Origin: Escherichia coli
GTDB lineage: Bacteria; Pseudomonadota; Gammaproteobacteria; Enterobacterales; Enterobacteriaceae
Assembly: GCF_016903815.1 (NCBI RefSeq)
Contig: NZ_CP069973.1
Direction: 5' to 3' (one strand)
DNA: 64,000 nt
Below are positions 6,965-24,235 of this stretch, one piece after another (the first letter of the stretch is position 1; each line of letters begins with the position of its first letter). The notes under the pieces are model-generated. The model was not told where the DNA came from. It saw nothing but the letters and a program-made list of their open reading frames with translations, and searched no databases. Both the position numbers and the translations under genes were made by a program.

Positions 6965-7229
6965 GAGTGAAATCCTTACAATGTGTATAAATGAGAGGAA
7001 ATAAAGGCCGGGGGCTGACAACATCACGTTCATCACTGACCGTGAGACCCGGCAATATCAGGGATGAATGATATTCGGCTGAAATTCCGGACAGCCGTAC
7101 GCGTAACCGTTCCGGTCACAGACGGATGGCCAGAAGATGCCATTGCCTGTACTCAGTCTGCACAGACTGAGTTCTCCGGGGCGTCGGGTGATTCTGGTGC
7201 CTGAATCACGCCTTCAGGGACAGATTGCA

Positions 7230-8048
7230 TCAGCGCAGGCTCTCCAGTAGCGTTTCTGCCATCACCCACAATGCGCGATTGAGCTTAATGTCGGTGTCGA
7301 TGCTGTGAATGGCACGGGTGTGGATACGTTTTCCTCTGGCACTGCGACCGGAAATTCCGCCTTTCAGCATATTCTCCTGGATGGTCTGATAAGTACTCCA
7401 CAGGTCCTTACCGTAATCCTCCCGGCGTCGTGGCGTCAGAATGTCGGTAGTGGTGACGGGCTGATGTTCATCACCATAACGGTAAGTCAGCGCCGCCTGT
7501 GCCAGCGCCTGGCGTGCCGGTGGCGGCAGGACCAGCGACTGCATGGCATCACGCTTTTCCTCAATCCGGTCAAACACGCCCACCACTTCGTAAGCACCTT
7601 CTATGACCCTGTCCACCACGTTTCCCCGGTGTGGCACCCGGACTTCTCCCAGCGACTGACCGCAGACCAGGCCATTGGTACAAATGGCACGAAAATATCC
7701 GGGTAACATCTGGTAGCTGGATGAACCGTCATGGGAGTTGAGCAGAATAATTTCAGGCACATGCTGACCGGTTATCTGTCCGGCCCGCCGCAGACGCAGC
7801 ATATGTTTGGTATATTCCCGGCGGCTCTGGTCGCGCACACGGGTCTGGCAGGCGAAGAACGGCTGAAAGCCTTCCCGCTGCAGATTTTCCAGGACGGTGA
7901 TGGTGGGAATGTACGCATACCGTTCACTGCGGGAGGTGTGCCGGTCTTCTCCAAAAATACTCGGGACGTGGTACATCAGTTCTTCGCGTGTCAGTGGGCG
8001 CTCCCGACGGATCTGATTTACATGACCAAAACGACTGGCTAATTGCAT
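7230..8048 (-). CDS. DUF932 protein (YafZ/YfjQ-like)
   Basis: 272 aa at the expected position in a CP4-like gene order. Confidence 0.7.
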   Translation of the reverse strand: MQLASRFGHVNQIRRERPLTREELMYHVPSIFGEDRHTSRSERYAYIPTITVLENLQREGFQPFFACQTRVRDQSRREYTKHMLRLRRAGQITGQHVPEIILLNSHDGSSSYQMLPGYFRAICTNGLVCGQSLGEVRVPHRGNVVDRVIEGAYEVVGVFDRIEEKRDAMQSLVLPPPARQALAQAALTYRYGDEHQPVTTTDILTPRRREDYGKDLWSTYQTIQENMLKGGISGRSARGKRIHTRAIHSIDTDIKLNRALWVMAETLLESLR

Positions 8049-8137
8049 ACTTTGCTCCTTATGAATGAATTAGCGGTATAAACGAAAAGGCCGCGTCTCC
8101 CGGAGAAGACGCGGCCTGATGGATGAAATGAAGACGT

Positions 8138-8371
8138 TTATTGCCTGAGAATTCCCTCACTGGCGAGGTACGAATTTAGCTGTTTTCCGGCGTCAGACTC
8201 AAAATTCCAGCACCGCCAGCGTAGCTGCCCTTCGGCATTGCGGATAACCAGCAGGAAATGCGTTCCATGGTCATCTTCAATAAGCACATTGCGGTAAGCT
8301 GTTGTGGCAGCCATTGCCTGTTTGCGTGAGAAAGGGCCTTCGGGCAATAAAACAGGGTGACAGTCCGACAT
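8138..8371 (-). CDS. Small hypothetical protein (77 aa)
   Basis: ORF in operon context between the lipoprotein and DUF932 genes. Confidence 0.45.
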
Positions 8372-8376
8372 ACCGG

Positions 8377-9054
8377 CTATTTTCCGATAAATTCAACGCT
8401 GGCACTGGTGGCATTACCGTCAGCACCAACCGTGACGGTCACTTTGTCGTACGCACGGTCTTCAGGATTGAATACTTCAAACTCAACCTTATTGCCTTTT
8501 ACTTCGTAAGAGCCAAAATCAGCGGTTTCTGTTGTTTCCTCGTCATATTCCCGGGCGTATGCCTGCCGGGCAGCCTGCAGGACGGAGTCTTTATTAATAG
8601 TGGTCGTCTGTTTCGGGGAAAAACCGGCAAGTGATGTGACAAATTTCGGACAGACCTTCAGCATATCACCGCGGGTGAATTCCATTCGTACACCAAATGC
8701 CTGTAAAACGGACACATCACGCTCTGCTATGGAGTGAACGGCTTTTTTGACCATTTCCGGCGCCTGTCCGATTTCCACCTCAACAGCCCTGAATCCCGTC
8801 TGCTGATTACACATTTGTGATGTGGGGATCAGGTTACCGTTAATACTGATACGGCTGCCCAGGAGCGTCTGTACGCCATTCGGGCATCCCTGCATCAGGC
8901 CGGTAATACCAATCGTGCCATTTTTCAGCATTACCAGCGCCTGACCATCTTCCGTCATGGTCTGACACCAGCCGTTTTTGACAGCCCAGTTGCCGGCGGA
9001 GGCGGAGAATGATGCCACAGTGAACAGCAGGGGAAAAAGAGCTCTGGTATTCAT
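8377..9054 (-). CDS. Putative lipoprotein (YafY/YfjS-like)
   Basis: Signal-peptide-like N-terminus [21 protein letters not shown] from internal Met; start codon at 9052..9054. Confidence 0.6.
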
Positions 9055-9201
9055 GACTGACCTCTGAAATGAACGTACGGTGTTATTGATAATGATGGAA
9101 GGTATGCAGTGACTGTTCAGGGAATGACGTAGCCGTATATTTAGTTTTCTGTTCAACATATTGTCTCCATACCTGTCGGGACGGCTTTGGCAGGCCGGCG
9201 A

Positions 9202-9882
9202 TCACAGGTTAAAGGTGTTGATAAGTTTATGGATGAAAGAGAAATGTGGCAGGGCGGAGATAAAACGCTCTTCAGCGACCAGACTGTGGATGTGGCCTCT
9301 CCGTTCAAACCGTTCTGATGTCAGGCTGACTGATTTGATATCTGCCAGAGGAAAGACCTGCAGTTTTCCCTTCTGTAACGCGATCAGATACCAGCTACCG
9401 CTGTAATAAATGAGCCGGCAGGGCTCCAGTGACGGATACCATCGCTCAGTCATCAGAGAGATGTGGATACACTGTCTTATTGCCAGGATGAGTTGCGAGA
9501 AACACTCGGGGAACGTTGCAGTGATATTCGGCGCCGGTAGCCAGATAAGGCAGGGAGAGGGCTCCTGGTTGTCGGTAAGACAGGTTATCAGTCGTCCGTT
9601 CCGGAGCGGAAGTATCCGTGCGATCCCGGTATTCTGTATAAAAGAAAGCATTTCAGGGATCGCACCTGGGCTGCTCTGTCGTCTGAGGCTGTACCTGCCA
9701 TTTCTGTACTCTAAATCCAGGTGAACCAGACGCTGATGAAAATCGCGCTGTAAAGTACGTTCTGTAACGCCAAATTCATCTGACAGTGCTTTTAGTGACA
9801 GAGATTCTCCGGCCATCAGTCGGCTGATAATGAGTGATAAGCGAACCGCCAGGCGATCATGCCGGGAACGATTATCAGACAT
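9202..9882 (-). CDS. HTH plus WYL-domain transcriptional regulator (YfjR-like)
   Basis: N-terminal HTH (LSLKALSDEFGVTERTLQRDF) and a C-terminal SWYLIA motif. Confidence 0.65.
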   Translation of the reverse strand: MSDNRSRHDRLAVRLSLIISRLMAGESLSLKALSDEFGVTERTLQRDFHQRLVHLDLEYRNGRYSLRRQSSPGAIPEMLSFIQNTGIARILPLRNGRLITCLTDNQEPSPCLIWLPAPNITATFPECFSQLILAIRQCIHISLMTERWYPSLEPCRLIYYSGSWYLIALQKGKLQVFPLADIKSVSLTSERFERRGHIHSLVAEERFISALPHFSFIHKLINTFNL

Positions 9883-10084
9883 AGATGTGCACTCCGTAAG
9901 AAAACATCTTTTATTTCATGATGTTATTATGCCTCATGGTGTTGAAAGGATGTGTCGTATCTGAATAATCAGGAATAAAATGCAGCAGAAAAAATATTCC
10001 TTTAATTATCTGATTTTTAATGATGATTTCATAAAAAGAAGAATACTCATTAATCCAGCGACACATCCTGTCGGCGTGAGTGTG

Positions 10085-10969
10085 TCAGAACAGACGATCC
10101 CACAGTGTTTCTAGCAGGCGGATAATGCGGTCCCGGGCTTTACGCAGAAGCTGTAACATCCAGACCGGAAAAGTGAACCGGGCAACGGCGTCGTCAAAAC
10201 TTTTCCCGATGGCGTCACCAAAAGTCTGTTGTGCGTGTTTCTGGGCCTGTTCAGAGCGGTTTTCCCCCCGGATATGTGAATAAACCGCACTGGTTGCCTG
10301 CGGTGGCAGGGCGTGGATCATCAGCGACACAAACGCCGGAAGATTCCAGCCGACAGGCGCAGCAACGGGGAGTACCGGAAATGATGACGGGAACAGGGTT
10401 GCCACCCTGGCTGTAACAGTTGCCAGTGAGAGTTCCTGGTGACGGGATGGGCATTTTTCTGTGGCATTCCATTCTTCAGCAGGAAACACGCGATCGGCAT
10501 GGCTGAGAACAAACAGAAAACGCGAGGGATCTGCACCTTCATTCAGTAAAAACTGATGCATGGCAATATCGGCAGCATACGCACGTTCATCAGCCCGCAG
10601 GATCCAGATAATCAGATCCAGTTCCGGCAGTAACTGACGGTAAAGCTCCCGGTATTCCTGATCATGCTGCGGTGTCTCACCAATGCCGGGCAGATCGACC
10701 AGCGTCATTCTGCGTTCACCAATCTGCAGGGTGAGGCGATGAGCCTGGCGGGTGCAGCCGTTCAGGGGATGCGTGGCGCAGATACGGGACTGAAAAATGG
10801 CATTACACAGACTGCTTTTGCCGGTGCCGGATTTACCCATAATGCCAATCACGGGCTCGTAATGAATAACACCGTGGAGATGTTCAAGGATTTTCTGGCG
10901 AATTTCTTCAGGAAGAAACGTCAGATATGATTTCACTTGCGCGGAGAGGGAAGAATTGCTGAATGGCAT
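10085..10969 (-). CDS. GTPase of the YeeP/YkfA/YfjP family
   Basis: P-loop GKSGTGKSS and DLPGIGE motifs. Confidence 0.85.
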   Translation of the reverse strand: MPFSNSSLSAQVKSYLTFLPEEIRQKILEHLHGVIHYEPVIGIMGKSGTGKSSLCNAIFQSRICATHPLNGCTRQAHRLTLQIGERRMTLVDLPGIGETPQHDQEYRELYRQLLPELDLIIWILRADERAYAADIAMHQFLLNEGADPSRFLFVLSHADRVFPAEEWNATEKCPSRHQELSLATVTARVATLFPSSFPVLPVAAPVGWNLPAFVSLMIHALPPQATSAVYSHIRGENRSEQAQKHAQQTFGDAIGKSFDDAVARFTFPVWMLQLLRKARDRIIRLLETLWDRLF

Positions 10970-11069
10970 ACCGGTATCCTGTTGATTTCACTGAACCGGA
11001 TCACACTAATCCGGTTTATCATTCAGGTAATATGGGTGTGAAAATTTTTCCATTGACGGGAAGAAGAGT

Positions 11070-12293
11070 ATGGCTAAAAACAAAGGTATCTGTCGGAATA
11101 AAAAATGCAGTAATCCTGTTTCAGAATTTGATGAGGCAAATGCCTTAAGGTTATGCGATGATCATTATAAGCTATGGAAGCGAAATAAAGAGAATCGTCG
11201 GGTCAGGAATATTTGTCGTATAATTAGTAGATATGACAAAAGTCTGGACTGGGAGATATTTTATAGAGTAAGAGATGCTGCAAAAAATAAAACGGGAAAG
11301 AGAATTATTGAGGACGCAAAAATATTACATCAATGGCGTGCTTCAAAGCAAGTAAGAAAAAGTTTTCACAAGGGTGTGCTTCGGTCACGGGAATGGCTTA
11401 ATACACAGGAGTTACTGAGCAGAAAACATATATCTGTTACAGGTGAACTATTTAAATTTTACATAAAAGATATTATCAGATTATATTGCTATAAGTTTCT
11501 CTACAGCAGAGAATATCTTAATGAAAACGCATACAAAAAACGATATCAGAGAGATATTCACCCCAGAAAAGTTAATGTTCCGATACTGCAACTTGAAGTT
11601 GCATGGATAAATAATAATTGCCGCTCAAGTGATTCAAGCACTGATATTATTATCCTTCCGAGGATGATAAGAAGAATGGTTGTATTTAATTATACGAAGA
11701 TAAATAAACAATTAGAGAAAGTGTTGGGGGGGATAGCACGAAAACAAACCTCAGAAAGAAATAAAGGCGGTCTCTATACCAGAATAAAAAAAGAAAGTGA
11801 CTTTCTTTCTATGGATAGATTTATGGTGGAAATAGAAAATATCATAAGACCTGAAAGGTTTCCTACATCAATTTATCCAGTCTTTTCACATTCATTTATT
11901 GAACGAGAGCTTCCGCTACTGAATCTTGCTCGATCACAGTATAAAAGAGCAATAAGTAAAAGAGTGGCGAATTCAATTTTTTATACTTTGCAAAAAACTA
12001 ACGTGGCATTATGGCTATATCTTGAAATGTTTGCTCTGGTGGCATTCATTAAACTGTATACAGGAAAAGGTTTTGAATTCATAAAGAACATGTGTGTATT
12101 TATCGATTATGAGAAAGGGATAATAAAATCCACACATGAAGAACTGCTGGGTGAAATTAAGCGTAACATTCAAGTGAATTTGAAGGTGAATCCTGATAAT
12201 TTTCCAGAGTTAATAGACATATACAATTCATGCTTTAGTGAAAATATATTGTCATATGATATTCAGGATGGTAATTTTAAATGGCGCTCATGA
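11070..12293 (+). CDS. Hypothetical 407-aa protein with Cys-rich N-terminus (C-x4-C ... C-x2-H), AT-rich gene
   Basis: Long uninterrupted ORF in a markedly AT-rich segment; no family recognised. Confidence 0.6.
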   Translation: MAKNKGICRNKKCSNPVSEFDEANALRLCDDHYKLWKRNKENRRVRNICRIISRYDKSLDWEIFYRVRDAAKNKTGKRIIEDAKILHQWRASKQVRKSFHKGVLRSREWLNTQELLSRKHISVTGELFKFYIKDIIRLYCYKFLYSREYLNENAYKKRYQRDIHPRKVNVPILQLEVAWINNNCRSSDSSTDIIILPRMIRRMVVFNYTKINKQLEKVLGGIARKQTSERNKGGLYTRIKKESDFLSMDRFMVEIENIIRPERFPTSIYPVFSHSFIERELPLLNLARSQYKRAISKRVANSIFYTLQKTNVALWLYLEMFALVAFIKLYTGKGFEFIKNMCVFIDYEKGIIKSTHEELLGEIKRNIQVNLKVNPDNFPELIDIYNSCFSENILSYDIQDGNFKWRS

Positions 12294-13455
12294 TGTAAAA
12301 ATATTAATTTCACATTACATATTAATTATTCACAAAAAACATATAATTAATTTCAATGAGTTACATATAAAAATGTTGATGATTAGCCAGCTTAGTATGG
12401 TTATGCAATGTGATGCTTAACGCTTACAGATAATAACACATTCATATGAGCTATATATCATAATATTCAATAATCATGATATGCTAATCTGATTATGGAT
12501 AAAAATTACTGAATGACGCCATATTATGATTGGCAGTGTTTCCTGTATACGATGACTTATCTCTCCCGCATCATATGGGGGCACGTTTCTTAGGAAAAGT
12601 GACGGGGTTACAGAAGCCAATTACGATAGTTTGTTGTAGAGTTATCACGAGTTTTTGTTGTTCTGAAGACGGAATCAAAAAAATAATTCCAGAGTAAACC
12701 TGTCTGTTTTTTGACCAGTAAAGATCCATGCTGGCCGTGAAAAACTGAAATCAACACTCAGTCTGCATGGATGTCTGAAGATATTGAGAATGTCGGGAAT
12801 GGTACTATATACGTATTATACAGACATATCTTCACTAAGTGTTATACACGCATTTTCATAGACAATCATACAAGTATTTTCATTAAGCATTGCTGTACAC
12901 ATTGCTTTGTCTGAAACACATCCAGTTTAGTAAATTTGTTAGTCCTTTTTTTACGATCGCTAAAATCAGTTAACCTCACTACAAAACCCTCTGTCCTGTT
13001 TAAGCAATCAAGATGATATTCGATTTTACTGAACCTGTGTTTAACCTTTTCTGAGTTTTCGTGTTTTAGTCGTTAACCTGAGAAAAGTATCTTTACGTAA
13101 AGCCCAGTGAATTAACTCAAATCCGATTGAGGTAACCTGATGCGATTTACTGTGAGTTTGCGATAACACTGTTAAATGGCTTATGGATGATTTTGTAACG
13201 GCGAGATTGATAAGGTGATTAACTGGCCCTGGTGTTTTTTCTCAGCGTAAGGTGATTATCTTCATCATAAGGCTCTTTTCAGAAAAAGTGTGATGATTGG
13301 TTGTGGTGTTTTGATTCAGATGAGGATCTGCCAATGATTATGATGTATTGTAAGAAATAACGCCTTCAGAATGTTGGAGCATGCACTTACACAAACTGTT
13401 TTTCTAAAATTAAGGGAACAGTTTAAAGAGTATAAACTGTTCATCTTCTTCAGGA

Positions 13456-13986
13456 TTAAGCTACATTGTTGTTATGACTGACAGGATTGTTTTCTTCCCC
13501 TGACTCTGGGCTTAACAGTCCCTGGCGTTGTAGATATTCACTGACTGACATTCCAGAACTACGGATCCTGTCAGAGATTTTACGAAATTGATCCTTCCAT
13601 TCTGCAGGTAATTTCTTAATTTGTCTGACTTTACAGGCTACACTGTACGGGGTTCGCCCTAGTTTCTCTGCTAGCCAGAAAAGGTGTTTACCAATTTCAT
13701 CGTCCGGTACATCCTCCAGAACATCTCGCAATAAACTCTCGTCTGCCTCATTCCATGCCACACCAGCATTTGGGAAACGAGGATCGATCTCTCTTTCCTT
13801 CTTCTCCTTCTTACTTTGCTCTTTTCGGGATGATACAGATACGACAGAACGTTCTTTTACCGCTGTAATTGCCATAACTGCATTGAGCAGAGATCTGCGC
13901 TCCACATCGTTCAGCATTTTTCCTTCACAGATCAAATCATTCAGGATGTCAATGACTAGATTCAGACTTTCTTCTGTTAGCTTCAT
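13456..13986 (-). CDS. Hypothetical 176-aa protein with Lys/Glu-rich linker
   Basis: ORF in AT-rich block; no family recognised. Confidence 0.5.
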   Translation of the reverse strand: MKLTEESLNLVIDILNDLICEGKMLNDVERRSLLNAVMAITAVKERSVVSVSSRKEQSKKEKKEREIDPRFPNAGVAWNEADESLLRDVLEDVPDDEIGKHLFWLAEKLGRTPYSVACKVRQIKKLPAEWKDQFRKISDRIRSSGMSVSEYLQRQGLLSPESGEENNPVSHNNNVA

Positions 13987-14655
13987 ATTTCAGACCTTGA
14001 AGTATGTAGATAATCAGCACAATTACTAATGTGATAAATATCAGAAGATAATTTACAGGTAAACCGGAAAATACATCTGAAGAATAAAGGCCTCAGCTTA
14101 ACGTTTCAGCCAGTTTGTGAGCTGATTGAGGTACGGCGATGACATTAACGGGAATTACTCCCCTATAGCTCTGAGCTTATTTTTCACCCTGGCAACATAT
14201 GGTGGCTACTGCGCATGGTTTTGGAGTAGATATCTTACTACTCGTAGAATTGTGCTTACTGGTCAGGCCAGCGCACAGGCATTCCGTGCAATCAATAGAA
14301 CACTGGTTTTTTAGTCTTCCGTTACCCATCAGGATGTTAGTGCAGATTCCGGTGTATTCGATCAGTTGTTCGGCGAATCAGCGATCGATCACGATGCGAT
14401 TTCGTATGTTAGGGATGCTGGTATGATTACTCGCTGAAAAATAATGTGAAAAGGCAGTTTTTCTTTAGACATTTAGCTCATTCATGCTGTTGTTTTACGT
14501 TTTGCTGTCGTGTGCAGGATTATCTTTTCGTTACGGGACGATTCATTCTGTTTTAATCAGGAGCCATTGGCGTTGCTCAATGGCGGGATGCCGTAAAGTT
14601 TTACCGCAGTGATTAATGATGTGAAGTCAATCCAAATCAACGGAGATCTCTCATC

Positions 14656-15387
14656 ATGAATCAACCAATACACAATGATTACTGGTTATCCCGTTTTGAA
14701 AGTATTCTCAACAGTGCCCTGGTGCAACACCGTGCCGTCTCGTTAATCCGGGTGGATTTACGTTTCCCTGAGTATATGCCTGTCACCATCATGGATCCCG
14801 ATCCGGATTCAGCGGTGATTTCCCGTTTTTTCGCATCCCTGAAAGCCAAAATTCAGGCTTACCAGCGGAAAAAAAGATGGGCCAATCAGCGTGTGCATGC
14901 AACCAGCCTGCGTTATTTCTGGTGCCGGGAGTTCGGCAAGATGTATGGCAGGAAACATTATCACGTGATATTACTGCTCAACAAAGATACCTGGTGCTCG
15001 CTCGGGGATTTCAGCGAACCGTCTTCGCTGGCGACGATGATCCAGGAGGCATGGTGCAGCGCCCTGCATCTTGAGCCCTGGCAAGGCGATGGCCTGGTCC
15101 ATTTTTCCAGGTGGACGCCTTCCCGTAAACCGACATCGTCTGATGCTCGCCCTTCTTCCGATGACACGCCTTTGTCGGGTGGATGTTCTGATACCAGGAA
15201 GGCTTCAGACAAAAAGCCAGGTGAAGCCGCTGTGCTCTGGATCAAGCGTGGTGATGTGGAAGCGCTGCAGAAAGCCCGGAACAGAGCCAGTTATCTCGTG
15301 AAATATGAGACGAAGCAGCATGACGGTTCCGGGCAACGTAATTATGGTTGCAGTCGTGGGCCGGGGCGTCTACTGGATGGCAGGTGA
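14656..15387 (+). CDS. YagK/YfjJ-family protein (Inovirus Gp2-like)
   Basis: N-terminal region resembles YfjJ/YagK of cryptic prophages; from memory. Confidence 0.5.
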   Translation: MNQPIHNDYWLSRFESILNSALVQHRAVSLIRVDLRFPEYMPVTIMDPDPDSAVISRFFASLKAKIQAYQRKKRWANQRVHATSLRYFWCREFGKMYGRKHYHVILLLNKDTWCSLGDFSEPSSLATMIQEAWCSALHLEPWQGDGLVHFSRWTPSRKPTSSDARPSSDDTPLSGGCSDTRKASDKKPGEAAVLWIKRGDVEALQKARNRASYLVKYETKQHDGSGQRNYGCSRGPGRLLDGR

Positions 15388-21697: not shown

Positions 21698-22533
21698 CCT
21701 TCATTCAATCATAACTACTGTAATTCATACGATACTCAGATAAGTTATTTTACTACGTTGTTGCTAATATCTACCTGTTATCAGTCTTCACTGAAACAGC
21801 AATTGATTTTAGTCATTATCCATAATGAACTGTATTGACTTAACGATGATTGTTGTTGACCTGAAGTGTTTTAACTATTCTGGTAAATATCAATACTTCT
21901 GTCATCACTGATTAACTGGATGTTTACTCTTTGATAAGGTATCCATGATTTCGTCATGTTTAACAGCGCAGGATAAACAATGAAATTAACAGAGTGAATT
22001 CCTGATTATATTTGTTCGTTTCTGATTATCTTGTATGTTAAACAAAATGAAAATTATCCATCCATGGTATATTTTATTCTGGTGCCGTGTACCCGTTAAC
22101 GCTCATGTTTTGAAGTGAGTTGTTTTTAACAGATTAAATGAGAGTGTATGATTTTATCAGGTTACAGATATGTGTTGGCCTTGTACACGTTTTTGCAGAC
22201 TCACTGAGAGCAAGTTTGTAGTTTATGATGTGATTGGTCGCAATATGTTTCTTAATCTCCAGGTAGTGGGGTTTTAGCTCGTATTTTACAGTATTTCGTG
22301 ATGTTTTATTGAGTCTGTATTTTCTTTACTCCTCGTTTATCTCATCTCTTTAGCTAATACCATCAGATAATCCATTTCTTTCTGCATAATGCTGCGTATC
22401 GTTAATAACCCGTCGTATCCATTCTGCTACAGCATGCCTGATAAATACCATCTGTAAGTTATTACCGTTATGAGCGAAAGCATTAATTCGTTCACAGAGC
22501 TTAAAACATCATTAACTTTCAGGAGTCATCAAC

Positions 22534-23100
22534 ATGCCTAAATCTTACACACCAAACTGGTTTTTTACCGCTTTACTTGACAATCACATCAATCAAATGA
22601 TGGCACGCTATTCCTGCCTGCGGGCCTTACGGATGGATTTCTTCTACAGGAAAGATACGCCCGATTTCTTACAACCTGATCATCGCTGGCTTGAATTGCA
22701 GTTGCGTATGCTGCTGGAGCAGGTGGAACAATTTGAAAATATCGTTGGTTTCTTCTGGGTGATTGAATGGACGGCTGATCATGGTTTTCATGCGCATGCG
22801 GTTTTGTGGATCGATCGTCAGAGGGTTAAAAAAATATATCCCTTTGCGGAGCGGATTACGGAATGCTGGCGGTCTATTACACATAACAGCGGTTCGGCAC
22901 ACCGCTGTACATATCAGCCGCATTATACATACAACATCAACATTCCTGTGCGCCACAACGATCCTGAAAGCATCGATAATATTCGCGGTGCCCTGCATTA
23001 TCTGGCAAAAGAAGAGCAAAAAGACGGGCTGTGTGCCTATGGCTGCAATGAAGTTCCTGAACGTCCTGCTGCAGGGCGTCCTCGTAACCCTCACTTCTGA
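22534..23100 (+). CDS. YagK/YfjJ-family protein (Inovirus Gp2-like)
   Basis: 188-aa ORF with family resemblance; from memory. Confidence 0.5.
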   Translation: MPKSYTPNWFFTALLDNHINQMMARYSCLRALRMDFFYRKDTPDFLQPDHRWLELQLRMLLEQVEQFENIVGFFWVIEWTADHGFHAHAVLWIDRQRVKKIYPFAERITECWRSITHNSGSAHRCTYQPHYTYNINIPVRHNDPESIDNIRGALHYLAKEEQKDGLCAYGCNEVPERPAAGRPRNPHF

Positions 23101-24001: not shown

Positions 24002-24235
24002 ATGTTGACCACAACAAGCCACGACAGCGTGTTACTGCGTGCCGACGATCCCCTGATCGACATGAACTACATCACCAGTTTCACCGGTATGACCGATAAA
24101 TGGTTTTACAAGCTGATCAGTGAAGGTCATTTCCCTAAACCCATCAAACTGGGGCGCAGCAGCCGCTGGTACAAAAGTGAAGTGGAGCAGTGGATGCAGC
24201 AGCGAATTGAGGAATCACGAGGAGCAGCAGCATGA
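24002..24235 (+). CDS. alpA: AlpA-family phage regulatory protein (MerR-like HTH)
   Basis: MNYITSFTGMTDKWFYKLISEGHFPKPIKLGRSSRWYKSEVEQW matches the AlpA pattern. Confidence 0.75.
   Translation: MLTTTSHDSVLLRADDPLIDMNYITSFTGMTDKWFYKLISEGHFPKPIKLGRSSRWYKSEVEQWMQQRIEESRGAAA

Follow-up and report, generated by a model that had tools for sequence, protein, structure and literature searches.

Organization of the locus

An open reading frame of 407 codons lies on the plus strand of the window, the 64,000-nucleotide stretch of Escherichia coli DNA analysed here, next to a gene for a GTPase of the YfjP/YeeP family. The two genes point away from each other and are separated by a spacer of exactly 100 bp. 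This divergent position had been noticed in the first-pass annotation of the DNA, and the coordinates of the GTPase gene confirm it. Because the GTPase gene defines the position of the 407-codon gene, that position is referred to as the slot and its occupant as the slot gene. The locus contains the following features:

10085–10969, minus strand: gene for the YfjP/YeeP-family GTPase, conserved beside the slot and defining its position (annotation; Pfam domain MMR_HSR1 in all homolog loci; synteny table)
10996–11037, no strand assigned: control region that is possibly shared, an inverted repeat and a −10-like block in the 100-bp spacer
11045–12671, plus strand: variable cassette of an approximately 25-nt leader, the coding sequence and a class-specific 3′ flank of about 380 nt (blastn against the islands L021 and L023; A9)
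11070–12293, plus strand: coding sequence of the 407-residue protein with an ATG start, class A of the superfamily; identical to WP_001107219.1 and about 99% identical to Q1R2M8 of UTI89
11091–11168, plus strand: predicted N-terminal zinc ribbon, residues 8–33, C8-x4-C13 ... A23-N24-x2-R27-L-C29-x2-H32-Y33
11361–12290, plus strand: predicted core domain, residues 98–407, compact and mainly helical with two short beta elements
12563–12590, plus strand: terminator-like hairpin with a T-rich tail in the 3′ flank of the cassette (the consensus scan gave 3 sites against 1.0 expected)

The sequence at 11070–12293 is a real protein-coding gene under selection. At its own base composition, a stop codon is expected about every 12 codons, and a stop-free run of 407 codons has a chance of 2.3e-16. 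The other five frames of the same interval contain 17–51 stops. In the alignments, the homologs of the protein begin at the same methionine. Alleles of the gene that differ by 3–9% in nucleotides have a dN/dS of 0.26–0.27, which is comparable to the 0.12–0.22 of the adjacent GTPase gene. DNA of the slot gene is present in 975 of 5,426 complete E. coli genomes at a total of 1,068 places, all but one of them chromosomal, and in 967 of the 975 carriers at least 80% of its length lies in a single place. The listed E. coli matches are annotated as "hypothetical protein" throughout.

The gene has a GC content of 0.334 (0.287 at third codon positions), and its divergent GTPase neighbour has 0.533. 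In the sliding profile, GC drops to 0.31–0.34 across 11–12.5 kb from about 0.5 on either side. The encoded protein is basic, with a pI of 9.8 and 9.8% lysine, 9.1% arginine, 9.8% isoleucine, 7.4% asparagine and 4.9% tyrosine. The first-pass annotation described a long clean frame in an AT-rich segment and a product rich in lysine, arginine and tyrosine, and both descriptions hold. Its argument that the composition reveals a foreign origin does not. Every homolog measured has a GC content of 32–37%, in five genera and at identities down to 22%, and the GTPase genes of the three E. coli islands measured have 53–55%. The AT-richness of all homologs indicates that the low GC content is an old, maintained trait of the family and not the mark of a recent import into the island.

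Predicted zinc ribbon and core domain of the slot protein

The N-terminus of the protein, MAKNKGICRNKKCSNPVSEFDEANALRLCDDHY, includes the segment GICRNKKCSNP...LRLCDDHY, which provides the ligand pairs C8-x4-C13 and C29-x2-H32. This cluster, previously described as zinc-finger-like, is kept across the relatives. C8, C13, C29 and H32 are invariant in the first alignment of eight members (A1) and, together with R27, in the alignment of 12 ribbon sequences (A4) and in that of 13 members (A7). The four ligands are at least 90% conserved in the wider sets A2 and A8, which take in one truncated member and the ribbon-less class C described below. One subgroup of the family has C-x2-C in place of C-x4-C. 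The model of the ribbon has a block-mean pLDDT of 72 for residues 1–10 and 88–89 for residues 11–40, with strand-like residues at positions 7 and 16, and helices at 21–25 and from residue 30. The conserved Cys/His ligands are arranged as a knuckle and a helix start, and form a predicted zinc site of the zinc-ribbon type.

The ribbon appears to behave as an independent module. It is duplicated in tandem in the Salmonella member P0020, is followed by a second CxxC...CxxxH motif in P0033 and P0038, and is missing from class C of E. coli. A small N-terminal Cys-rich ribbon is also characteristic of the ClpX/ClpK-type short zinc ribbons and of the Ogr/Delta activators of P2 and P4. However, the remainder of the slot protein is unrelated to these proteins, and the ligand spacing of Ogr/Delta differs from that of the slot-protein ribbon. 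The best PDB match of the ribbon profile, 18 residues of the ClpK N-terminal fragment 8p66_B, contains the peptide LLCDDHY and is not significant (E 0.93).

Two ligand pairs, with Asn-x2-(R)LC-x2-H at the start of a helix, are also found in HNH proteins and Endonuclease VII, and the AN-x2-RLC-x2-H motif resembles the N-x2-LC-x2-CH sequence with which HNH motifs end. A few UniProt entries of the family, such as A0AAW5Z627 and A0AAU7N7V1, are labelled "HNH endonuclease". The slot gene could be imagined as an HNH-type homing endonuclease that keeps its place by cutting alleles without the gene, and a sharply bounded AT-rich cassette between conserved genes would agree with such a function. This explanation is very improbable. 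The ligand pairs of the ribbon are 15 residues apart, and none of the 12 ribbon sequences offers a conserved, potentially catalytic His or Asp between C13 and N24. No HNH motif bears the label out, the 407-residue protein has no Pfam HNH match at E≤10, and HNH families are absent from the per-member Pfam matches of the family at E≤0.1. The motif is dispensable, as class C shows, and the core has no conserved acidic cluster. Another database label, "Reverse transcriptase" on the UniRef entry of the Klebsiella michiganensis homolog, was rejected because neither reverse transcriptase motifs nor a palm/fingers domain of mixed alpha/beta fold were found and Pfam RVT profiles gave no match.

The structure of the protein was predicted with AlphaFold2 from the family alignment. 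The full-length model has a pLDDT of 76.5 and a pTM of 0.64, and the values of 80.3 and 0.81 for residues 98–407 indicate that this part forms one compact, mostly helical domain. The core carries the motifs SREWxNTQEL, YSREYL, LEV, P-x2-IRRMV, GG-L-Y, LPLFxLA-x2-Y-x-R, LE-x-FA and LYNSxFS. Across the whole superfamily, only W109, P197, Y236, P282 and L286 are invariant, a pattern that looks more like that of a scaffold or binding protein than that of an enzyme.

Relationship to known proteins and distribution

Pfam, NCBIfam and PADLOC contain no family that matches the 407-residue protein, and the single PHROGs match has an E-value of 0.08. Pfam was run on the single sequence, on the ribbon alone and on every member of a 15-sequence alignment, and neither the single sequence nor the ribbon gave a match at E≤10. 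Searches of PDB sequences with the protein, the family profile and the ribbon profile returned nothing significant. Foldseek, run on the predicted structure against AFDB50, returned the family itself and found no structural match beyond uncharacterised proteobacterial proteins. Profile and fold searches detected no DNA-binding fold, helix-turn-helix or ribbon-helix-helix in the protein. Homology to YfjH or YfjI of the K-12 island CP4-57, which occupy comparable control-region positions, was rejected at an hhalign probability below 1%. The earlier statement that the protein belongs to no recognisable family is thereby upheld, as is its nomination as a good candidate for an undescribed function. 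Judged from the models, the protein family and its fold appear to lie outside everything described.

An exhaustive phmmer search of 1.84 billion representative sequences gave 25 matches, about ten of them full length. Profile searches added a type of 383 residues that is common in Klebsiella pneumoniae, K. oxytoca, K. aerogenes, K. grimontii, Citrobacter freundii and Atlantibacter. All family members with a named source are from Enterobacterales. No relative was found by tblastn in 72,556 plasmids or in 50,697 phage genomes, nor by a scan of IMG/VR. A scan of GTDB representatives with a single peptide pattern, which underestimates the distribution, found one locus.

Gene neighbourhood of the slot

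In E. coli CE10, the region adjoins setC/yicL/nlpA and lies inside a block of CbtA/CbeA, RadC, antirestriction, DUF932, WYL and GTPase genes, in agreement with the earlier claim that the gene is embedded in an island. The GTPase gene is the first of a leftward operon with the order GTPase-WYL-hyp260-DUF905-DUF932-antirestriction-RadC-...-CbeA/CbtA. The window also contains a second Rep gene at about 22531–23091 and an AlpA-like gene at about 24044–24223.

Outside E. coli, 11 distinct contexts of the homolog were fetched, and a YfjP-type GTPase gene adjoins it in 10 of them. The loci with a homolog directly beside the GTPase gene include those of Klebsiella michiganensis, Citrobacter, Salmonella, Atlantibacter, the K. 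pneumoniae group and two read assemblies. The only context without adjacency, L006, is cut by an IS. Adjacency was seen in loci L002, L004, L005, L007–L012 and L014–L023. By position, the slot gene is a backbone gene of CP4-57-like tRNA islands in Escherichia, Klebsiella, Citrobacter, Salmonella and Atlantibacter, which are marked by a P4 integrase, AlpA, the Gp2/YfjJ Rep and the YfjP GTPase. The divergent arrangement is usual, with spacers of 82–105 bp between the slot gene and the GTPase gene, and of 184 bp in class B, in the islands of these five genera. In locus L011, which has the order integrase, two small genes, homolog, GTPase, WYL and DUF932, the homolog is co-directional with the GTPase gene and still adjacent to it. 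Compact Klebsiella islands carry genes for CbtA, CbeA, DUF987, RadC, (antirestriction), DUF932, a 225-residue protein and the GTPase on the leftward side. On the rightward side, the homolog comes first and is followed by AlpA, a Gp2/YfjJ-like Rep and several small genes. In the Klebsiella, Citrobacter and related islands, the genes for the excision regulator AlpA and the Gp2/YfjJ-like rolling-circle Rep directly follow the slot gene on its own strand.

The position of the slot gene had been called typical of accessory or defence cargo. The neighbourhoods of the homologs support the island setting, but not the idea of freely moving cargo, because the slot is fixed beside the GTPase gene in the 10 of 11 contexts and no copies were found in the plasmid and phage collections searched. 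The defence models tell against the idea as well. PADLOC-DB v2, with 5,027 defence-protein models, gave 0 families at E≤1 for the 407-residue protein, and 0 for class B, class C and the Klebsiella type. The exception among the relatives is a chance-level match of 34 residues to LmuB in P0053 (E 8e-4). Given the hypervariability of the slot, the gene may still have a conflict-related role.

A preprint describes tRNA-integrating elements as composed of an integrase, AlpA, an HUH Rep, cargo and a RadC/ArdB/CbtA "moron" module, and leaves the 407-residue gene unmentioned (PMC12458937). The slot gene adjoins an ArdB/KlcA-type antirestriction gene and small genes of the "moron" type (PMC12458937), and its product evolves fast. 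It might, like the neighbouring antirestriction, RadC and CbtA proteins, be a counter-defence or host-manipulation effector that is expressed on island entry and has diversified against host targets. We regard this as quite unlikely, because the slot gene is transcribed away from the antirestriction operon and has no phage or plasmid homologs. Typical anti-defence proteins are small, and the 407 residues of the slot protein are much larger.

A hypervariable cassette with three classes of alleles

E. coli genomes contain 2,505 copies of the GTPase gene compared with 1,068 copies of class A, and for this reason islands without class A were inspected. The slot of E. coli islands holds one of three homologous classes, encoding proteins of 407 (A), 376 (B) and 316 (C) residues. 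The slot proteins are 17–22% identical across islands of classes A, B and C, whereas the GTPase proteins of these islands are 94–95% identical. The class B protein of island L021 matches the family profile with a probability of 99.5% (E 4.5e-22) at 15% identity in the hhalign alignment, and has the same zinc ribbon and LYNSFF motif. The class C protein of island L023 is ribbon-less and matches the profile with a probability of 94.5% (E 7.7e-8). It is accompanied by a convergent gene for a protein of 262 residues with a weak match to a RepA regulator, the C-terminus of which can be read as ribbon-helix-helix-like.

The borders of the variable segment are sharp. In blastn comparisons with the L021 and L023 islands, the window is 93–96% identical over 7196–11044 and then has no match. 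Homology resumes at 70–77% identity from about 12663/12680, and rises to 89–91% over the Gp2 gene. The break lies about 25 nt before the start codon and the return about 380 nt after the stop codon; in A9, the conserved block behind the cassette begins at about 12672. The cassette begins just past a −10-like element that is common to all classes, and its sharp edges match the exchange of a transcription unit.

The E. coli places of class A (1,068), class B (516) and class C (812) sum to 2,396, compared with the 2,505 GTPase copies, with adjacency of the two genes checked in sampled loci. The closeness of these numbers would fit a backbone function of the slot gene better than optional cargo. 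In comparisons across genera, 35 of 36 locus pairs show lower conservation of the slot protein than of the GTPase. The slot class does not predict the divergence of the GTPase: the GTPase beside the class A allele of L009 is 87% identical, and those of the class B and C islands are 94–95% identical.

The cassette edges and the homology of the alleles indicate that the slot gene is neither random cargo nor an ordinary backbone gene. The sequence comparisons show a discrete, recombinationally exchanged unit with homologous alleles whose divergence is almost saturated. By analogy, such a pattern is typical of specificity determinants, such as phage immunity repressors, SaPI Stl and the recognition subunits of conflict systems, and it points to a specificity or conflict role of the slot gene rather than to random cargo.

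This cassette behaviour at a fixed island position is new, in that it is contained in no description found in the literature searched. Searches with the accession, the names of the GTPase and the island gene set gave no description of the 407-residue gene. In the Shigella SRL island, orf42-45 lie beside a YfjP/YeeP-type GTPase gene and have been listed as having "no similarity" since 2001 (PMC6980539). They resemble the slot gene in this position and in being without annotation, a likeness taken from the published description. Neither this paper nor the preprint (PMC12458937) mentions a hypervariable cassette.

The extreme divergence of the slot beside a conserved partner may have its origin in an arms race with invaders. 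In this reading, the main rival of the switch proposed below, the slot protein would be the variable subunit for recognition in a system that acts against phages or plasmids or in exclusion, either alone or with the operon of the YfjP-type GTPase. The adjacency to the GTPase gene survives the change of orientation in L011, and the GTPase has a weak PADLOC match to LeoBC of the dynamin-like Eleos system (E 4e-7). In K-12, the island CP4-57 lacks a slot gene, and the defence genes abpAB and rnlAB occupy the equivalent place directly before yfjP. Islands of the CP4-57-like type have been described as carriers of defence payloads (PMC12458937). Such a sensor is nevertheless unlikely. Apart from the chance-level LmuB match, PADLOC recognises none of the classes, and the family was found neither in the plasmid and phage collections nor in IMG/VR, although defence genes usually travel on such elements as well. 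The protein has no nuclease, NTPase, TIR or other effector signature. The failure of the GTPase divergence to track the slot class argues weakly against an obligate co-evolving pair.

DNA elements of the spacer and the 3′ flank

The spacer between the GTPase gene and the slot gene contains the inverted repeat AACCGGAT-N7-ATCCGGTT at 10996–11018, followed by GGTAATATGG. The block GGTAATAT(G/A)G at 11027–11036 provides a −10-like hexamer on both strands (TAATAT / ATATTA). The element is kept in eight loci, from four named genera and one read assembly, with compensatory changes in the stem (A6). The window and the class C island agree at every base of the repeat and the −10-like block, and class B differs at one base just outside them. 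A role of the repeat as a class-specific operator was rejected, since all three classes have it in identical form and an inverted repeat also lies before yfjP of K-12, where no slot gene is present. The same spacer layout precedes the GTPase gene in L011, where the slot gene is co-directional. The layout in L011 and the inverted repeat before K-12 yfjP indicate that the element is part of the GTPase operon, and the slot gene possibly shares it.

On the downstream side, the hairpin at 12563–12590 is possibly the end of the transcript, as suggested by its sequence. About 380 nt downstream of the slot gene begins a conserved, gene-free stretch of approximately 650 bp with TTTTCACTAAG-like repeats in variable copy number. 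This repeat-bearing non-coding block is common to all slot classes. Searches for class-specific repeated sites in the 3′ flank or in the gaps of the homologs found only low-complexity AT-rich pairs, and no Rfam family matched 10800–14700 at E≤1. A conserved small open reading frame in the 3′ flank was rejected because a 55-codon frame that ends in KIIPE is broken in L010, L022 and L021. A remnant of alpA was not found in the gene-free stretch.

The gene-free repeats raise the prospect of a DNA-processing accessory, which would bind the origin or transfer region of the island and assist the Gp2/YfjJ-like rolling-circle initiator, with the classes corresponding to replicon or incompatibility groups. 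The position between the Rep/AlpA genes and the antirestriction operon resembles, by our own reasoning, a relaxase/oriT/leading-region layout, and a basic protein with a zinc ribbon would be suited to the task. We consider this function improbable, since the repeat block is common to all classes and does not co-vary with the protein. Neither sequence nor fold searches linked the slot protein to primases, relaxases or initiators, and it has no conserved acidic or HUH-type residues.

A possible island-specific switch

The explanation that we tentatively prefer, at a probability well short of even, is that the 407-residue protein is an island-specific switch of a regulatory or immunity type, comparable to Stl of SaPIs or CI of phages. 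The slot gene would then supply the component that varies from island to island within the control region of a CP4-57-like element integrated at a tRNA gene. Its product is a basic protein with a predicted N-terminal Cys3His zinc ribbon and a predicted helical core of about 310 residues with an undescribed fold. The zinc ribbon, or in class C the separate ribbon-helix-helix-like partner, may anchor the protein to nucleic acid, either close to the divergent promoters or within the AT-rich non-coding DNA that follows the gene. The helical core, which evolves fast, may bind a variable partner, such as a protein that a phage or plasmid brings into the cell or that a sister island encodes. Each class would then respond to a different signal or represent a different immunity group.

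The switch is favoured because the slot lies in a control region, between the leftward operon and the AlpA and Rep genes, and diverges from the operon across a short spacer. The dispensable and replaceable N-terminal zinc ribbon speaks for it as well, as does the lack of catalytic signatures, matches to defence families, and copies on plasmids or phages. The likeness to SaPI Stl and the lambdoid CI repressors is a functional analogy only. In these systems too, a single gene occupies a fixed position in the control region, diverges from the main operon across a short spacer, and has extremely diverged alleles in otherwise similar elements. The proteins likewise consist of a small N-terminal module of a nucleic-acid-binding type followed by a larger helical domain. 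However, the slot protein has no helix-turn-helix and no similarity to Stl or CI in sequence or fold, the conserved palindrome near the slot gene is constant among the classes, and class C is ribbon-less.

Some observations weigh against the switch. Searches detected no DNA-binding fold or helix-turn-helix in the slot protein. The inverted repeat of the spacer is invariant among the classes, the 3′ flank contains no convincing class-specific sites, and class C lacks the zinc ribbon. The hypervariability suits a sensor of defence or counter-defence equally well, and the abpAB and rnlAB genes upstream of yfjP in K-12 show that the neighbourhood can hold defence cargo.

A more specific form of the proposed switch is doubtful. 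In this form, the new-fold superfamily would be a hypervariable specificity determinant, through which a class-specific signal from a phage, a plasmid or a sister island would switch the GTPase-antirestriction-toxin operon, the excision and replication driven by AlpA and Rep, or both.

Significance for CP4-57-like islands

CP4-57-like islands, with their integrase, AlpA, Gp2-like Rep, YfjP GTPase, antirestriction, RadC and CbtA/CbeA genes, occupy tRNA genes in a large proportion of the genomes of E. coli and Klebsiella and carry virulence, metabolic and defence cargo. To our knowledge, nothing is known about how these islands are controlled or how several copies coexist in one cell. Whatever the function of the slot protein, the fold of its core of about 310 residues is predicted with confidence (pTM 0.81), and the core has neither a solved nor an annotated relative. 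A gene that is always in the same place, intact under selection and almost totally different among near-identical islands is a natural candidate for a control or specificity function. If the more specific form of the proposed switch is correct, the slot gene would provide the induction or immunity switch that has so far been missing for elements regarded for decades as "cryptic prophages".

N-terminal domains and gene partners of the slot proteins

Judged from the sequences of its members, the N-terminus of the slot-protein family is subject to domain shuffling. The zinc ribbon is tandemly duplicated in the Salmonella members P0020 and P0053 (L007:8587-9984), and the integrase-proximal subgroup formed by P0033 and P0038 (loci L006 and L011) carries a second motif, C-x2-C-x14-C-x3-H (KCNYCHKSL...YCSVEH). 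Genes convergent with the slot gene occur in class A and class C islands:

13456-13986, minus strand: gene of a 176-aa hypothetical protein, convergent with the 407-aa gene
L023:5160-5948, plus strand: 262-aa gene beside the class C slot gene, convergent with it and overlapping it by 4 bp

The 176-aa protein is 99% identical to WP_000778603.1, and in E. coli it accompanies class A islands. Its C-terminal half resembles a Myb/HTH-type DNA-binding segment, and its sole match is a weak one to the PHROG "transcriptional regulator, D5-like" (E 0.003). The convergent 262-aa gene is the partner of the zinc-ribbon-less class C allele in L023. The C-terminus of its product (INVKISPSAKSALDRLTRERKTTQQAILEQLIL) looks like a ribbon-helix-helix motif, and NCBIfam gives a weak match (E 0.027) of the protein to replication regulatory protein RepA. 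The 262-aa protein may supply a DNA-binding module in trans, in place of the ribbon absent from class C.

Spacer element and the GTPase gene

The spacer that separates the 407-aa gene from the GTPase gene contains an element that is conserved across loci:

10996-11037: inverted repeat AACCGGAT-N7-ATCCGGTT, followed by the block GGTAATAT(G/A)G

The repeat and block are kept in eight loci, which belong to four named genera and one further assembly. Changes in the stem of the repeat are compensatory, as in Citrobacter (TCCTGGC...GCCAGGA). Read toward the GTPase gene, the element consists of a -10-like hexamer, about 9 nt, the hairpin, about 25 nt, and the ATG; the hexamer is CATATT in the window, whereas it is TATATT in most loci. 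Because of this order, the element looks like the promoter of the GTPase operon together with a leader hairpin or operator. K-12 yfjP has a hairpin at the equivalent place, but it is a different one. In the YfjP-family GTPase itself (10085-10969, minus strand), residues 185-289 resemble LeoBC, which is the dynamin-like component of the Eleos defence system; the PADLOC match is weak (E 4e-7).

Conserved gene-free stretch downstream

Islands of classes A, B, and C have in common a gene-free stretch:

12672-13340: conserved stretch of approximately 650 bp

Its mean column identity across the three classes is 77%, and it contains long invariant blocks together with direct repeats like TTTTCACTAAG / ATACACGTATTTT, the copy number of which varies. 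The two halves of the stretch combine as a mosaic, independently of the slot class. The stretch contains neither an Rfam match nor an intact ORF. It may represent a gene that has decayed, an origin, or a group of binding sites.

A possible composite island and the compact Klebsiella islands

Farther to the right of the 407-aa gene, the window also contains:

14656-15387: first Gp2-family gene
about 16.9-21.2 kb: block of pseudouridine kinase, glycosidase, nucleoside transporter, and sugar kinase genes
22531-23091, plus strand: second Gp2/YfjJ-like Rep gene (55% identity with the Rep of the Klebsiella island)
24044-24223, plus strand: AlpA-like gene (about 70% identity)

Since the first two entries are interposed between the 407-aa gene and the second Rep and AlpA-like genes, the E. 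coli island looks like a composite or expanded version of the compact layout seen in Klebsiella. The compact island itself, about 8.4 kb long (CbtA ... GTPase / homolog-AlpA-Rep-three small genes), recurs in the Klebsiella loci L014-L017 in at least two chromosomal contexts: it is adjoined by ars genes in L014, L015, and L017, and by a CitMHS transporter gene in L016. In none of these four islands can an integrase be seen within 10 kb. Together, the multiple contexts and the lack of a nearby integrase suggest that the mobility or capture of the compact island is independent of an adjacent integrase.
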